The notes beneath the pieces are model-generated. The model made no database searches. It was not told where the DNA came from and worked only from the letters and a program-made list of their open reading frames with translations. 64,000 bases of DNA, from positions 7,828-71,827 of the forward strand of contig CAVYJE010000027.1 of NCBI GenBank assembly GCA_963768705.1. The letters are read 5' to 3'. Origin of the DNA: an uncultured Chloroflexia bacterium (lineage in GTDB: Bacteria > Chloroflexota > Dehalococcoidia > DSTF01 > WHTK01). The translations under genes and the position numbers were made by a program. This document shows, piece by piece, positions 7,753 to 19,191 of the stretch (positions are counted from its first letter, which is position 1; each line of letters begins with the position of its first letter).

Positions 7753-9051
7753 TCAGCCTCCCACCTCATGCAGGCGGCGCTGGAGGTAGCGTTGCTCTAC
7801 CGGGTTGGCGCACAGCTCCAGGGCGCGCCGATACGCCGTCGCTGCGGCATCGGGGCGAGCGGCGCGACGCAGGAGGTCGGCTTTGGCGGCGTGGAGGAGG
7901 TAGTAGTCGTCCAGGGCGCCTTCGGCCTCGAGGCCTTCGATCAGACGCAGGCCGGCGTCCGGGCCCCAGGCCATGGCAGCGGCGGCGGCGCGGTTGAGCT
8001 CGACGACGGGGCTGGGCTGCAGGCGCAGGAGCTCGTTGTAGAGCGCGGCGATCTGGCGCCAATCGGTGTCTCCGGAGCGCAGCGGCTCCGCGTGCAGGGC
8101 GGCGATGGCGGCCTGGAGCTGGTACGGCCCGGCATGCCGCATGCGCAGTGCCCGCTGCACCAGCACCGTGCCCTCCTCGATGCGCCCTCGGTCCCACAGC
8201 GTCCGGTCCTGCTCCTCCAGCGTGCGCATCTCGCCCGAGGCGTCGGTGCGGGCATTGCGCCGGGAGTCGATGAGGAGAATGAGCGACAGCAGGCCCAGCA
8301 CTTCCGGCTCGTCGGGCATCAGGGTCGCCAGGAGGCGGCCAAGGCGGATGGCCTCGTCGCACAGCTCGGCGCGCAGGAGGGTCTCGCCGGTCGAGCCGAC
8401 GTAGCCTTCGTTGAAGATCAGGTAGAGCACGGCGAGGACGCCGTTGAGCCGATCCGGCAGGGCGTGCTCTTCGGGTACCTGGTAGGGGATGCGGGCGTCG
8501 CGGATCTTGCCCCTGGCGCGGGTGAGGCGCTTCGCCATCGTCTCCTGGTTGACGAGGAAGGCGCGCGCGATCTCGGGCGTCTCCAGCCCGGCGACGGTGC
8601 GCAGGGTCAGCGCCACCTGCGATTCGAGGGCGAGCGCCGGGTGGCAGCAGGTGAAGATCAGGCGCAGACGGTCGTCTTGCAGCACGTGGTCCTCCGCCTC
8701 CTCTGGTACCGAGCCCTGTTCGGCCTGCTCCTGCAGCAACAGCGACTTGAGCTGCTCTTGCTTGCGCGCGAGGTTCTGACCGCGTCGCAACTGGTCGATG
8801 GCCTTGCGGCGGGCCGTCGTGATGATCCAGGCATCGGGGCGCTGCGGCACGCCATCGAGGGGCCAGCGTTCGAGCGCGGCGATCAGCGCCTCCTGGAAGG
8901 CGTCCTCGGCGAGCTGGAAGTCGCCTCCGCAGGCGCCGATCAGGGTCGCCACGATGCGGGTACCGTGTTCGGCAGCGACGGCCTCCACCGCGCGACGAGC
9001 CGTCTGCCCGTCGCGTGGTGGAGCACCCCTGAGCTCGCTCGAGGGGTTCAT
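7753..9051 (-). CDS. ECF RNA polymerase sigma factor with C-terminal TPR/DUF6596 extension (YciI-associated type)
   Basis: [67 protein letters not shown]. Start uncertain (9051 or 9156). Confidence 0.88.
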
Positions 9052-14240: not shown

Positions 14241-15533
14241 ATGGCGCTTCCTGACCTGGTCGAGATCGTCCCACCGGCCGCACTGGCACCCGTGCGCGTC
14301 ACGATACCCGGCTCCAAGAGCATCACGAACCGGGCGCTGATCCTCGCGGCCCTGGGTGAGGGCCTGACCATCCTGCACGGCGCCCTGTGGAGTGAGGACA
14401 CCGAGATCATGGTCGAGGCGCTGCGCACGCTGGGCTTCGAGGTCAGCGTGGAGCCCGACGCGTCGGAGGCAGGCAACTGCACGATCGCGGTCTCGGGTCG
14501 CGGCGGCGAGATCCCACGCTCCGGCACGCCTTCGGACCCGCTCGAGATTTACGTGGGCAACGCGGGCACGGCGGCGCGCTTCCTCACGGCGATGCTCTGC
14601 CTGGGCAACGGCAGCTATCGCGTGCACGGTACCGCCCGCATGCACCAGCGGCCGCAAGGCGCCCTGTTCGACGCGCTGGGCCAGCTCGGCTACCGCATCA
14701 GCGCCGAGAATGGCCACCTGCCCGCGACGCTCTCCGGCGAGACGGGCTCGATGTCCCGGACGTGCAGCGTGAGCATCGAGGAGAGTTCGCAATTCGCGTC
14801 AGCCTTGCTGCTGTCGGCGAAGCACGGCGCCTGGCAGGTTACGGTCACCGGCGATGATGCGGACGAGTCAGCCTACGTGGCGATGACGACGAGGCTGATC
14901 GAAGCCTTCCCGGAGCACGGCGGCGAGTATTGGATCGAGCCGGACGCGTCCAGCGCCAGCTACTTCCTGGCGGCCGGCGCGCTGTTCCCGGAGACGCACC
15001 TGCAAGTGAACAACTGGCCCGAGTCGGACTGGCAGATCGACGCGCGTTTCGTCGAGTACCTGCGCCGATTCTCGGACGACGGCATCGAGTACGCCGACGT
15101 CTCGCGCCTGCACGACCTGGGCGACGCGATCATGACAGCGATCACAATCGCTTCGCTGCTACCGAAGCCGTCGCGGTTCACGGACCTCGGCCGGCTGCGC
15201 GTGCAGGAATCGGAGCGCGTGTTTGCGCTGCGCACCGAACTGACCAAGTGCGGTGCCGAGGTCATCGAAGAGGGCGATACGCTGACGATCGCGCCCTCCG
15301 AGCTGCACGGCGCCGAGATCGACACGTACGACGATCATCGCATCGCCATGTGCTTCGCCACGCTGGGCCTGAAGGTACCGGGCATGCGCATCCGGGAGCC
15401 GAACTGCGTGGCCAAGACCTTCCCGAATTTCTTCGCTAAGCTGGTGGAAGCACCGCCGAGTGGACTCGGCGCGAGGGTGCTGGATGCGGCGACGGGCCGC
15501 GAGCTACTGGGAGACGAGCTACTTGCAGAATAA
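14241..15533 (+). CDS. aroA: 3-phosphoshikimate 1-carboxyvinyltransferase (EPSP synthase)
   Basis: PGSKSITNRAL, GNAGTAARF, RMHQRP, SSQFASALL, DASSASY, LRVQESER, YDDHRIAM, VAKTFPNFF. Confidence 0.93.
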   Translation: MALPDLVEIVPPAALAPVRVTIPGSKSITNRALILAALGEGLTILHGALWSEDTEIMVEALRTLGFEVSVEPDASEAGNCTIAVSGRGGEIPRSGTPSDPLEIYVGNAGTAARFLTAMLCLGNGSYRVHGTARMHQRPQGALFDALGQLGYRISAENGHLPATLSGETGSMSRTCSVSIEESSQFASALLLSAKHGAWQVTVTGDDADESAYVAMTTRLIEAFPEHGGEYWIEPDASSASYFLAAGALFPETHLQVNNWPESDWQIDARFVEYLRRFSDDGIEYADVSRLHDLGDAIMTAITIASLLPKPSRFTDLGRLRVQESERVFALRTELTKCGAEVIEEGDTLTIAPSELHGAEIDTYDDHRIAMCFATLGLKVPGMRIREPNCVAKTFPNFFAKLVEAPPSGLGARVLDAATGRELLGDELLAE

Positions 15534-16140
15534 CCTCGAAGTGCCGCTGCTGCCGCGAGAGCCGGCGCTGCTGATCGTGCTCTCCGGTCCTTCCGGTGCC
15601 GGCAAGGACTCCGTTTGCGACGTCCTGCGCACGTGGTACCCCACGATGCACAAGGTGGTGACGGTGACGACCCGACCGGTGCGCCCCGGCGAGGAGAACG
15701 GCAAGGACTACCACTTCATCAGCGCGCCGGAGTTCCAGACGATCCTGGATACGGATGGCTTCGTGGAGCACGCGACGGTGTACGAGCACAGCTACGGCGT
15801 GCCGCGCATCGAGATCGAGGACCCGCTGAGCTTCGGCCTCGACGTGATCGCGCGCGTGGACGTGCAAGGCGCCGCGACGCTGAAGCGCCTGTTTCCGGAC
15901 GCCGTGCTGATCTTCGTCTCGCCCGGGAGCGTCGAGGAGACCGTGCGCCGCATGCGGGATCGCGACCTCGACACGGAAGCGCAGCAGCAGCGCCGCACCG
16001 AGATCGCGGCGTCCGAGCTCGAAGCGGCGAAGGACTTCGACTACGTGGTGCTGAACGAGACTGGCAAGCTCGAAGAGGCCGCGAGCGAGGTGGCGAAGAT
16101 CATCGCGTCGGAGAAGCGGCGCCGCGGGGCGGTCGAGTAA
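15523..16140 (+). CDS. gmk: guanylate kinase
   Basis: LIVLSGPSGAGKD, TTRPVRPGEENGKDYHF, YG, DVQGA, FDYVVLN. Confidence 0.95.
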   Translation: MQNNLEVPLLPREPALLIVLSGPSGAGKDSVCDVLRTWYPTMHKVVTVTTRPVRPGEENGKDYHFISAPEFQTILDTDGFVEHATVYEHSYGVPRIEIEDPLSFGLDVIARVDVQGAATLKRLFPDAVLIFVSPGSVEETVRRMRDRDLDTEAQQQRRTEIAASELEAAKDFDYVVLNETGKLEEAASEVAKIIASEKRRRGAVE

Positions 16141-16182
16141 CCACCCCGGCGGCTGTTGTCGCAAGAAGCTGAGGTAGGCGTC

Positions 16183-16839
16183 CTAGGCCGGAGCGAGCTG
16201 GCGGTCGCGAGCCTTGAGGCCTGCGACAACCCAATCCGCCGCCGTGGCCATCTCGATCTCGCTGCCGTTGATCGTCAGGTCGTAGGCGCCGGAGCCGAGC
16301 CAATCCATGCCGTAGGCGCACTTGAAGAACTTGGTTCGCCGGCAGTCGTCGTCAGATAGGAGTTGAGTGGCTTCCGCCAACGAAAGGGACTCGCTCCTGG
16401 CGACTCGCTGAGCACGCACATCGCGGGCGCCGTGGACGAGCACCTTGAAGACGCCGGGCGTGTCACGCAGGATCGCCTGGCCGGCGTGGCCGACGATGAC
16501 GCAACTCCCTTCGTCTGCCAGGTTGCGCACGACCTCTTCGATCAGGGCGCGGTAGTCCGCGGACGACCGCATGGTCAGAACGCTCCCGCCAATCGGTGAC
16601 ATCAGAAAGCCATCGGAGGCAACTGCCGTGGTCGTGAGGTGCTCCACCATACGCTCGACAAGGCTGGGCCAGCGTTCGGCCCCAGCGACCGTCTCCGGAG
16701 AGACGCCGCTCAATTCGGCTGCGCGCGAGATCACTTCGCGGTCGTAGAAGCGCAGCCCCAGCCGGGTCGCGACTTCCTGGGCGATTTCGTGGCCACCGGA
16801 GCCAATCTGGGCGGAAAAGGTAACAACATCGCGGGTCAT
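16183..16839 (-). CDS. cytidylate kinase-like family protein (Cytidylate_kin2 type)
   Basis: VVTFSAQIGSGGHEIA, LRFYDRE, CVIVGHAGQAIL, YDLTIN; GGAGG upstream of ATG 16839. Confidence 0.85.
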   Translation of the reverse strand: MTRDVVTFSAQIGSGGHEIAQEVATRLGLRFYDREVISRAAELSGVSPETVAGAERWPSLVERMVEHLTTTAVASDGFLMSPIGGSVLTMRSSADYRALIEEVVRNLADEGSCVIVGHAGQAILRDTPGVFKVLVHGARDVRAQRVARSESLSLAEATQLLSDDDCRRTKFFKCAYGMDWLGSGAYDLTINGSEIEMATAADWVVAGLKARDRQLAPA

Positions 16840-16904
16840 GAGCCAATCCTCCATATCCTGCTGGAGGAGGGGGTCCGGTGGCAGTGAGGCGTTCCGGCCG
16901 CTCG

Positions 16905-16940
16905 AAAACAAAAACAGCCGGAGGACGTCCTCCGGCTGTT
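16905..16940 (-). terminator. intrinsic terminator, expression platform of the riboswitch
   Basis: Minus strand aacagccggagg-acgt-cctccggctgtt followed by tttgtttt. Confidence 0.85.
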
Positions 16941-16954
16941 AACCGAAAACCCAT

Positions 16955-17082
16955 CCTCTTTCAGTGGCCTACGAGGTTAGCTGTCGGGTTAGGGCTGAAA
17001 GAGATCTGCTGCCCCGTCCTCTTGCGAGAACTACACCCCGGGAATTGGTTCCCCCGCTCCTTCCGAAGAAGGACTCGGCCTT
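16955..17082 (-). ncRNA. cyclic di-AMP (ydaO/yuaA) riboswitch
   Basis: Minus strand GCCGAGUCC...GGAGCGGGGGAACC...GGGGUG...GCCCUAACCCGACAGCUAACCUCGUAGGC...GAAAGAGG, matching the ydaO-yuaA hallmark segments in order. Confidence 0.92.
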
Positions 17083-17160
17083 ATAACGCCATAAGAGTAG
17101 CCGATACGCCATCACAAGTCCATCCGGCCGCGTACGTGCTTTCGCACGCCGGACGCATGA

Positions 17161-17184
17161 CACTGCAGGATGAATCCTGCAGCT
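17161..17184. repeat. REP family A copy
   Basis: cactgcaggatgaatcctgcagct, with a compensatory change in the stem relative to other copies. Confidence 0.75.
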
Positions 17185-17239
17185 TGCGTTGTCGCACCGC
17201 GAATCGAAGCTATCGATTTACGGCAGACGGTACGTGACC

Positions 17240-19191
17240 TCAATGAGGCGGTCTGTGCGCAGGTCTGTGCGTGACTTTGAGGCCGCCGGTGTAGGTCTTG
17301 CCGTCCAGCAGCACGGACTCTATGTGGGCGCCTTCGGGGAGCTTGAGGTTGAGCGTGAGGGGCGTGGCCTCGGTGCCGGCCTCTTTCTGGACGTAGAGCT
17401 TGTACGTGCGCAGGTCGCCATCGGCCGCGATGACACCGGGGGTCTCGTACGAGACGTCGAGCTTCGCCGATGTGCCGGGGAGGACCGGGAAGTAGCGCCC
17501 GAAGGTCGTGTAGCCGTACTCGTTCTCGATGGCTTCGGCGCCGACGGTCTGGCCGCCGAACCTCACGTCCTTCAGGGAAGAGCCTTCAAGGGCGTACACG
17601 CGCAGGTAGCTGCCGTAGACACCGTTGAACATGAGGCGAGCGACCAGCTCCGGGTCGCGGCCGTCAGCCCACTGCGGGAACGGGTTCTGGATCGCGTATG
17701 AGACCGTTTTAGCCGCCGACGGCGTCGTCCGTGAGATCGACGTCGACGTTGAGGGACGTCTTGAGGATCATGTTGAGCTTCGTGCTGTTGACGCTCGTGT
17801 CGGCGGCGAGGAGGTAGTCGCTGTCCTCGCGGCTGCTCGATGGAGCCATCGAGGCTGTAGTCGATCGAGAGGGCCTGCATTTCGGGGTCGTTGAGGTAGA
17901 TCTGGAGGTGACGCTCCTGCGCCATGCGGTCGAGCACGCTAAGCAGGTCTACCCACTGCTCCTTCGGGGTCGAGAAGATGCGCTTGAGCAGAGCTTCGGA
18001 GAGGTCTGAGAGGAAGGCCTTCTGGTCCTCCACCGGTACGTCCCACTCATCGCGGGTGAGCTCCAGAGTGAGCTCCTGGAAGTTCTCGGCGTCCACGGTG
18101 ACGTCGTAACCGGGCACGTAGACGGCACCCATCTCGTCGAGGAGGGTGCGGATGAAGTAGGTGTCGATGGCGATGGTGCCATCCGTGGCGGGGGCGCCGC
18201 CCTTCTGCACGAAGTCGGCTGCCAGCCGCGACGTCGTGGGGAAGTCCGGGTACCAGCCCGCCTCGCCGAGGCCCCACGAGTAGCCCTGCTTGAGGTAGTT
18301 GGCCAGCGGCGCGGGCGGCGCGACGTACTCGCCGTTGGACTCGGTCTGCCAGCGGTCGAACAGGGCTTCGAAGTACTCGAACTGCATGTCGCCCAGCTCG
18401 CCATCCGTAAAGGTGGCGACGCCGTAGCTGGAGATCAGGCCACCGGAGGGGAAGAGCTCCGTGTCGTTCTGGGGCAAGACGAGGTAGGTGCGCTGGCCCT
18501 CGTAGCCCAGGAGGGTGGGCAAGAAAGACTCGGCGCGGTCGTAGCCGGTCACGAGAGCATCGAGCTTGGCGAGCGAGTCGCCGAGCTGCACTTTGGCGGT
18601 ACCGAGGGGGCCGATGAGGCCATCGGGCAGCGCGGCATACTCGGCCTGGAGTCCCGCGAGGCTGTCCTGCACCGCCTGCATGGGCGCCTGCTGGGCATCG
18701 AGGAAGGCGAGGGCCTCCTGGATCGACGTGAGGTTGGGGTCGTCCGTCTGCTGCGAGAAGGCGAGGGCCACGTCCGAGGCGAGCATGCCGGTGCGCGTCG
18801 AGTCCTCGGCGGCGAGGACGAGCGAGGTGAGGCCGTCCGCCTGCTTGTCGAGCACGGGCAGGTGGCGCGCGACCTTGAGCAGGGGGTCGCTAAGGACGAA
18901 CCGGCGAGCCGACTGAGCGCGCGTGAGGGCGTCTTCGAGCTGGGCTTGCGTGGCGAGCACCTCGGCCTCCGAGTCTTGCAGGCTGCCGAGGTCGAGCTCG
19001 TCCCGTAAGGAGAGAAGGCTGCTGCGCGTGGCCTGGACGTCGGAGTAAAAGGTGTAAGCCCGGTAGGCTTCGACGCCACCGATGAAGAGTAGAAGGGTCA
19101 AGAGGACAGCGCCCGCGATGCGCAGGCGAATGGCGCTGGTGGTGAGCTCCGGCGCACCAGAGCGCCGTTGTCCGGTCGCGACGTTGATCAC
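17240..19191 (-). CDS. DUF4012 domain membrane-anchored protein, frameshifts near 17830 and 17710
   Basis: N-terminal TM; RTYLVLPQNDTELFPSGGLISSYG, WYPDFPT, DGTIAID, NVNSTKLN, YKLYVQKEAG. Confidence 0.8.

Follow-up and report, generated by a model that had tools for sequence, protein, structure and literature searches.

The window analyzed here is a stretch of 64,000 nucleotides (nt) from the genome of an uncultured bacterium of the Dehalococcoidia (positions 7,828 to 71,827 of contig CAVYJE010000027.1 in assembly GCA_963768705.1, referred to as G000 where genomes have to be told apart). On its reverse strand, a complete cyclic di-AMP (c-di-AMP) riboswitch followed by an intrinsic terminator precedes a single gene, which specifies a protein of the PF13189 (Cytidylate_kin2) family, here named P0001. 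This pairing is limited to one narrow lineage, yet real. Sequence comparison identifies the leader as a copy of the riboswitch leader of a GT20 gene located in a trehalose gene cluster on contig C2 of the same genome, and the PF13189 gene as a duplicate of a gene from that cluster. We consider it probable that these elements together constitute a terminating c-di-AMP switch, assembled from the leader copy and the gene duplicate, whose protein product would fulfil an accessory or regulatory role.

The riboswitch leader and the gene behind it

When the whole window was searched by cmscan, RF00379 (the ydaO/yuaA class of c-di-AMP riboswitches) was the sole Rfam family above threshold, with one match at 16951-17090 (-) which reaches 84.6 bits (gathering score 38; E-value 3e-18), spans model positions 1-134 of 134 without truncation, and was recovered again in a search of the whole genome. 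The complete ydaO-type aptamer proposed in an earlier, sequence-only reading of this DNA (the initial annotation) is thereby borne out, save that the end given there, 17082, omits the first 8 nt. The intrinsic terminator reported in the same place is likewise present (16905-16940, -): starting 10 nt past the aptamer, it consists of a 12-bp stem (16940-16913; 12 pairs, eight of these being G-C) closed by a 4-nt loop, with a U-rich tail behind it (U-tract at 16914-16905). This hairpin is the single terminator-like site found by a simple scan of 16000-17400 and, given that such a scan is expected to return about 1.2 sites by chance, it is the place of the terminator right behind the aptamer that matters rather than its mere presence. 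Within the aptamer, an internal-loop strand (16995-17004, -) and a 3' tail strand just upstream of the terminator (16955-16964, -) exhibit perfect complementarity over 10 nt (17004-16995 with 16964-16955), thus representing the candidate strands of a pseudoknot, which we take to be probably the one seen in crystal structures of this class. The 3' tail block (16951-16970) is identical to that of the window in nine of 12 aligned leaders, the three that differ being the C9a, C8 and C9b riboswitches of the source genome.

The gene behind the terminator (16183-16839, -) encodes a protein of 218 amino acids (aa), with an ATG at 16839, a stop codon at 16183-16185 and a Shine-Dalgarno (SD) sequence, GGAGGA, located 7 nt before the ATG (16847-16852, -). 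A mechanically generated list of open reading frames (ORFs) gives a longer frame starting with a TTG at 16911, which falls inside the terminator; the 218-aa frame is supported by a 93%-identical homologue that also has 218 aa. P0001 matches PF13189 with 145.8 bits (cut-off 28) over positions 1-175 of the 176 of the profile, and the G+C content at third codon positions (GC3) of its gene, 0.80, is like that of the other genes of the genome. The guanylate kinase gene gmk (15460-16140, +; PF00625, 118.7 bits) converges on it with a stop-to-stop spacer of 42 nt, so that the controlled unit is a single gene, in agreement with the initial annotation on the family, on the one-gene unit and on the convergent gmk alike.

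Regarding the mode of control, the aptamer would fold when c-di-AMP is high, upon which the adjacent hairpin and U-tract would end transcription and leave the PF13189 gene silent, while at low c-di-AMP RNA polymerase would read through into this single gene. High c-di-AMP usually lowers osmolyte accumulation, and an OFF switch agrees with this. OFF polarity is, by analogy, the most likely, since the ydaO-like riboswitch of rpfA is described as terminating prematurely upon c-di-AMP binding (excerpt of PMC10117811), the Streptomyces rpfA leader being a member of the RF00379 class, to which the window aptamer, with a terminator behind it, also belongs. The search for a DAC-domain cyclase which had been suggested in the initial annotation gave one match (143.5 bits) in the source genome (4.14 Mb in 28 contigs, 68.7% complete).

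Downstream of the terminator, a C-rich stretch (16863-16873, -) represents a candidate anti-SD element, which in the minimum free energy fold pairs with 16852-16846, and the GT20 leader of contig C2 has a similar C-rich run (L012:5815-5860, -) that is predicted to pair with its SD. The energies of these hairpins are no better than those of shuffled sequences (z of -0.19 for the window leader and -0.94 for the GT20 leader), and the element is therefore mentioned as a lead only, which could point to a second, translational layer of control. On the other side of the aptamer, a spacer of 149 nt (17091-17239) separates it from a DUF4012 gene on the same strand (17240-19191, -; PF13196, 76.4 bits), which is represented by the two overlapping ORFs 17572-19191 and 17240-17632. 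This spacer must hold the promoter, unless the switch is intercistronic; a sigma-70-like promoter was not found in 16000-17400, the scan being blind to other promoter types and uninformative for this phylum.

Origin of the leader and of the gene

The source genome contains five RF00379 matches and four PF13189 paralogues, the latter being mutually 44-54% identical and accompanied by a weak match to the true cmk; among the four, P0001 achieves the top PF13189 score. Outside the window, the riboswitch of contig C2 stands before a GT20 (OtsA-like) gene (322.7 bits), and the other three before ORFs without a Pfam family. Between the window leader and that of the C2 GT20 gene, identity amounts to 90% in the aptamer (121/135) and to 87% in the linker and terminator (39/45), as compared to 55% past the terminator, 45% in the sequence preceding the aptamer and 23% at the coding start, while the other three aptamers of the genome share 69-73% identity with that of the window. 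Within the source genome, a 25-nt terminator core is shared by the window and the C2 GT20 leader and is present at no other locus. The GT20 leaders of two other species of the genus carry the same terminator nearly letter for letter, from which it follows that the resemblance reflects a leader type that is conserved, and need not mean that the copy was made very recently. Judged from these identities, the window switch is a paralogous copy of a GT20-type leader, extending roughly from 17080 to 16865: it has the aptamer, the terminator core and the C-rich element before the SD in common with the C2 leader and its orthologues in the genus, and differs from the C2 leader in that the flank and coding region of the latter are unrelated and in that the latter controls a GT20 gene rather than PF13189.

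The junction between leader and gene was also looked for in independent sequencing data, where 14 public runs share small fractions of the words of 16100-17300, and four of these runs were examined as contigs. From a DNA run (X1), a 775-nt contig aligns to 16537-17293, from which it differs by 49 substitutions and 11 gaps (approximately 92% identity), and this single contig reaches from the gene start through the terminator and the aptamer into the upstream spacer. An RNA library (X2) yielded a 314-nt contig on 16664-16976 with six changed letters, which crosses the terminator and extends 36 nt upstream of it, and a second RNA library (X3) yielded contigs over 16351-16662, 16685-16840 and 16851-16940. 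In both RNA libraries, further contigs follow the window over no more than 16910-16976 or 16910-17074 and then diverge into a leader resembling the GT20 type, which indicates that both leader types coexist in those samples; in the fourth run (X7) only short conserved pieces matched. The RNA-library contigs are a weak hint of read-through transcripts.

With respect to the gene, no relative more than 57% identical to P0001 was found in 30 related genomes or in 101 fetched loci, and a collection of 5.8 billion proteins provided four homologues of 93, 81, 61 and 62% identity, each being 218-223 aa long. A maximum-likelihood tree of 57 rows was built from 48 near-full-length loci, the four paralogues of the source genome and the homologues just named, leaving out 11 distant or long-branch rows as well as partial or more distant loci. 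This tree groups P0001 with the four homologues in a clade (support 100/100, stem of 0.61 changes per site) which is nested (99/96, 99/95) in a PF13189 subfamily whose members have a riboswitch 0.6-1.8 kb downstream, its sister (99/95) being the group that holds the C2 paralogue of the source genome itself. A quick tree made without the four homologues likewise placed P0001 in the trehalose-cluster subfamily. The topology thus identifies the P0001 gene as a lineage-specific, fast-evolving duplicate of a C2-type PF13189 gene.

The C2 locus of the source genome has the order GT20 (in two frames), GlgX-like, PF13189, BrkB/YihY, MarR-like (on the opposite strand), riboswitch, GT20 and DUF503. At seven other loci of the subfamily, PF13189 is preceded by a divergent GT20 gene in four cases and by a GlgX-like gene in three, is directly followed by BrkB in six (33-141 nt away), and has a riboswitch followed by GT20 downstream in all seven; L037 and L038, which are members of the clade lacking a nearby riboswitch, have unrelated neighbours. 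As determined from coordinates, and with many of the assemblies being fragmented, this arrangement is present in eight of 18 genomes of the genus (the source genome and seven of 17 others) and in none of the 12 genomes that represent other families of the order. The P0001 gene lies outside this trehalose neighbourhood, between DUF4012 and gmk, so it appears from the alignments that of the cluster only the riboswitch leader came along to the window locus. The two further PF13189 paralogues of the source genome adjoin an ADH-like gene and a glycosyltransferase gene, and no riboswitch is present at either.

These comparisons suggest two copying events within one Dehalococcoidia genus, in which the PF13189 gene of the trehalose/alpha-glucan cluster would have been duplicated and have diverged quickly, and in which a GT20 riboswitch leader, comprising the aptamer, the terminator and part of the downstream leader, would have been placed before the duplicate. 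As the duplicate would thereby be co-regulated with trehalose-6-phosphate-synthase-like genes, it has probably been recruited into a c-di-AMP/trehalose regulon. The growth of a riboswitch regulon in nature is cleanly illustrated by this locus, a full leader being copied before a paralogue of a neighbouring gene.

PF13189 followed 33-163 nt on by BrkB/YihY, with a GlgX-like gene or a divergent second GT20 gene before it, was observed at L012:6630-10655, L030-L036, L053, L075 and L083. This PF13189-BrkB neighbourhood looks like a candidate operon that ties two families of unassigned function to trehalose and alpha-glucan genes.

Distribution of the pairing, the protein and competing explanations

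The initial annotation had placed the PF13189 family as such in c-di-AMP or osmotic signalling, a claim that would require the pairing to recur in relatives. The related genomes comprised G000, 17 others from its genus, one more from its family and 12 more from its order, and these 31 genomes contain 119 RF00379 and 58 PF13189 matches; based on coordinates, a riboswitch lies directly upstream of PF13189 at the window gene only, and at none of the 57 other genes. An alignment of the four paralogues, when scanned against 185,579 species genomes, retrieved 39 loci, none of which has an Rfam-detected riboswitch upstream of PF13189 and eight of which have a same-strand riboswitch 1.5-1.8 kb downstream. 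The same alignment retrieved 62 loci from metagenome contigs, which were searched with a covariance model derived from 12 local riboswitches: no riboswitch lies upstream in the 51 loci where 300 nt or more precede the match, and six of the 62 have one 0.57-1.64 kb downstream. Scanning the metagenome contigs with P0001 alone did not reveal close relatives. Among other Chloroflexota, an even sample of 150 genomes showed the riboswitch in 22, in which none of nine PF13189 genes is near it. Of 151 sampled Actinomycetota genomes, 16 contain PF13189 (a count that includes G271, flagged as unpublished), and 14 of these were searched, yielding a riboswitch in three and adjacency in none; three further genomes reached via the loci also lack adjacency of PF13189 and riboswitch. 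The pairing is consequently absent from relatives at every distance sampled with genomic context, meaning that the initial annotation was right for the window gene and wrong for the family, with PF13189 probably drawn into the c-di-AMP regulon within a single lineage.

In two genomes of the genus (G002:C9:458898-462370 and G012:C1:2398832-2401494; L165 and L171), a riboswitch-controlled DUF5698 gene converges on another PF13189 paralogue at a distance of 2-3 kb, a proximity which may be coincidental.

The Walker-A P-loop has the motif GxxGxGK[ST]. This motif does not occur in P0001, whose P-loop, GSGGHE, aligns with GKSS of GPVASGKSS in the canonical Cmk that is encoded elsewhere in the source genome; in a profile alignment of 48 PF13189 homologues with this Cmk, Gly16 sits at the position of the Walker-A Lys and His17 at that of the Ser. 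The absence of the Lys had been pointed out in the initial annotation, yet it is not peculiar to P0001: G13, S14 and G16 are at least 90% conserved among the 48 homologues and the GSGG P-loop is also carried by the PDB relatives 3fdi and 3hdt, which makes the missing Lys a trait of the whole PF13189 family. The LID-type Arg residues R142 and R145 and the D165/R168 pair align with residues of Cmk. An AlphaFold2 model of P0001 (predicted local distance difference test score 85.1) adopts a fold like that of nucleoside monophosphate (NMP) kinases, for which the best matches are 3hdt and 3fdi, followed by CMP, shikimate and dephospho-CoA kinases. The structures 3fdi (Eubacterium ventriosum) and 3hdt (Clostridium symbiosum) resemble P0001 in sequence (E-values of 4e-14 and 3e-13), with approximately 20% identity, and bear the depositors' labels 'uncharacterized protein' and 'putative kinase', which assign no function and thus do not account for that of P0001. 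P0001 scores 36.9 bits against the NCBIfam Cmk equivalog TIGR02173 (cut-off 102.1) and has no match to PF02224 at E-values up to 0.1. Hence, on its profile scores and P-loop, P0001 is not a Cmk: it shares with bacterial Cmk (PF02224/TIGR02173) the NMP-kinase-like fold and equivalents of R142, R145 and D165/R168, and differs from it in lacking the Walker-A Lys and Ser, in scoring below the equivalog cut-off and in coexisting with a separate cmk.

P0001 retains the Arg and Asp residues by which Cmk grips its phosphorylated substrate and lacks the Walker-A Lys and Ser. It probably binds a nucleotide or phosphorylated ligand without canonical ATP-dependent phosphotransfer. The idea of a nucleotide-binding regulator rather than a kinase, which had been voiced in the initial annotation, is compatible with these residues. 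The most likely role would be an accessory or regulatory one in compatible-solute (trehalose) metabolism. Protein receptors of c-di-AMP are known to possess domains such as RCK_C, CBS, PII-like and USP. None of these is present in P0001, for which Pfam at E-values of up to 0.1 gives PF13189 alone, a result that bears on the known receptor types and not on a receptor of a new kind; RCK_C is listed as a c-di-AMP receptor domain in an excerpt of PMC10117811. A search for longer, fused homologues gave two matches only, one with PF01554, which is too thin to build on, and a protein atlas search returned PF13189 clusters only.

All five sequences of the P0001-type clade have Cys at residues 166 and 174 (window positions approximately 16318-16344), in a helix with the invariant D165 and R168; in the parent subfamily, Ala or Gln takes the place of the first Cys and His that of the second. 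These two Cys residues are possible markers of functional divergence after duplication.

Several of the observations weigh against the favoured explanation, i.e. that of a terminating switch in which a leader copy and a gene duplicate from the trehalose cluster serve an accessory or regulatory function. With regard to switching mechanism and polarity, the terminator is present in all full-length folds, and folds of truncated transcripts showed no convincing antiterminator, the only alternative being a hairpin within the 3' part of the aptamer. The synteny of the cluster holds at genus or family level, no PF13189 gene near a riboswitch was found in the other four families of the order, and the cluster is not one operon, given that the opposite-strand MarR-like gene parts PF13189-BrkB from the riboswitch. 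The term GT20 denotes a Pfam family call and does not specify the sugar product of these enzymes. The pairing itself is confined to near-identical sequences and thus shows little evolutionary sign of selective maintenance, and the RNA-library contigs may stem from contaminating DNA. A rival reading is a neutral accident, in which a leader fragment landed before a redundant and perhaps drifting paralogue, making the regulation real but functionally uninformative, and the narrow distribution, the 57% identity ceiling among the 30 genomes and 101 loci and the long stem branch (0.61) all lend themselves to it. We nevertheless regard such an accident as unlikely, because the clade reaches down to 61-62% identity with proteins intact at 218-223 aa, because the top score among the four paralogues shows that family-conserved positions were kept, and because the GC3 matches that of other genes, the complete leader copy is joined to a good SD and ATG, and RNA-library contigs run over the gene. 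A misjoining of leader and gene by the assembler at repeated leader sequence is hardly credible: the window and C2 leaders do have long exact stretches in common, and there are probable indel errors elsewhere in the assembly (the split GlgX-like, GT20 and DUF4012 frames), but the sequence flanking the shared stretches differs from the C2 locus on both sides, two RNA-library runs span parts of the region, and the independent X1 DNA contig across gene, terminator and aptamer excludes such a chimera.

The favoured explanation also has to be set against readings that assign the protein a wider or a different function. That the PF13189 family as a whole acts in c-di-AMP or osmotic signalling, the pairing being a conserved regulatory link, draws on the one genuine pairing at the window locus, on the subfamily that neighbours a c-di-AMP riboswitch and GT20 in eight of 39 genome and six of 62 metagenome loci, and on the listing of PF13189 among domains fused to BON (OsmY-type) in the DolP paper and in a supplementary passage of its preprint; it is nonetheless improbable in view of the absence of a direct upstream riboswitch at the 57, 39, 51 and nine genes or loci enumerated above and of adjacency in Actinomycetota, of PF13189 being none of the 58 riboswitch-controlled first ORFs identified in 14 relatives (see below), and of the two riboswitch-free paralogues beside the ADH-like and glycosyltransferase genes. 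An osmotic link of the window gene is plausible through the GT20 leader copy and the trehalose-cluster subfamily, yet not on the grounds offered in the initial annotation. Less probable still is that P0001 represents a second (d)CMP kinase with a level tuned by c-di-AMP, as might be presumed from the Joint Genome Institute label 'cytidylate kinase' of its relatives, the CMP-kinase-like fold and the weak TIGR02173 match: the replacement of the Walker-A Lys by Gly and of the Ser by His, a score far under the equivalog cut-off, the canonical cmk elsewhere and the existence of four paralogues per genome speak against it. A broader proposal, in which the Lys-less PF13189 proteins of the cluster regulate compatible-solute (trehalose) synthesis by sensing nucleotides or act in it as atypical phosphotransferases, the window gene is a neofunctionalised copy wired directly to c-di-AMP by its borrowed riboswitch, and the regulon of the order is centred on trehalose (OtsA, OtsB, TreT) and glycosyltransferases rather than on K+ or osmolyte uptake, is possible, and is advanced here tentatively.

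PF13189 is widespread and has two crystal structures, both orphans, and the vicinity of trehalose and alpha-glucan genes under c-di-AMP control gives the family a first contextual lead; as to function this lead is modest, and the RNA itself is a typical representative of its well-known class.

Riboswitch targets across the order

In excerpts of two reviews, the targets given for ydaO-class riboswitches are K+ and amino-acid transporters, cell-wall enzymes and osmotic-shock proteins (PMC7266159, PMC10117811). The window differs from the RF00379 systems covered there in that its target is a PF13189 kinase-like protein and in that the commonest identifiable targets in this order are trehalose-synthesis genes. 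A full-text search of the literature found nothing linking c-di-AMP or ydaO to cytidylate kinase or similar proteins, the matches being unrelated by title and abstract, which upholds the view expressed in the initial annotation that the pairing is uncharacterised, with the proviso that the gene-association tables of primary papers may list PF13189 or otsA; the combination of a c-di-AMP riboswitch with trehalose-6-phosphate synthase turned up in a Streptomyces review only, and PF13189 itself in the DolP paper and its preprint only.

The survey of targets was based on 60 riboswitches from 14 relatives (10 of the genus and four of other families), for each of which 2.5 kb of downstream sequence was taken and the first ORF was defined, by a heuristic of our own, as one with high GC3 starting within 700 nt; two loci gave none, leaving 58 first ORFs, to which families were assigned by Pfam at E-values up to 1e-4. 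GT20 (OtsA-like) genes account for 12 of the 58, Trehalose_PPase and TreT for two each, so that trehalose-synthesis genes, with 16 of 58, make up the largest identifiable class. Glyco_trans_2_3 (GT2-type glycosyltransferase) follows with five and DUF5698 with two, while GT87, MFS, SBP_bac_5, GDPD, PRC and DUF3870 occur once each, as do Radical_SAM and a rubredoxin-like family (both below the cut-off), and 27 first ORFs have no family. No K+ transporter is present among the 58. If these assignments hold, c-di-AMP would govern compatible-solute synthesis at the RNA level in this uncultured Dehalococcoidia order, and this trehalose/glycosyltransferase regulon is possibly of more interest to the c-di-AMP field than the PF13189 pairing. 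The preference for trehalose-synthesis genes was noted at the C2 locus of the source genome (L012:4289-6073, -), L132, L136, L141, L149, L152, L153, L162, L163, L166, L168, L170, L173, L177, L183, L187 and L190.

Among the riboswitch-controlled proteins without a Pfam family, one of approximately 220-290 aa recurs (L013:4355-5182, +; L133, L135, L154, L167 and L169); it is conserved across the genus, and its copy in the source genome has only weak, below-cut-off methyltransferase matches. Small ORFs of 65-78 aa, located 0-73 nt past the riboswitch and having no Pfam match above cut-off, were encountered at L131, L137 and L160 (also L142, L147 and L150) and at L174, L184 and L188; one group of these shares a Cys/His/Trp-containing motif and another a CPRC zinc-ribbon-like motif. 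Such ORFs may encode c-di-AMP-regulated proteins or leader peptides.

Three genes of the source genome are each represented by two overlapping ORFs in different frames, namely the DUF4012 gene of the window (17240-19191, -), the GlgX-like gene (L012:8543-10655, -) and the second GT20 gene (G000:C2:49120-50425, +). The split frames are probably due to indel errors of the assembly, if they are not real frameshifts, and single-base frame calls in this metagenome-assembled genome should therefore be treated with caution.

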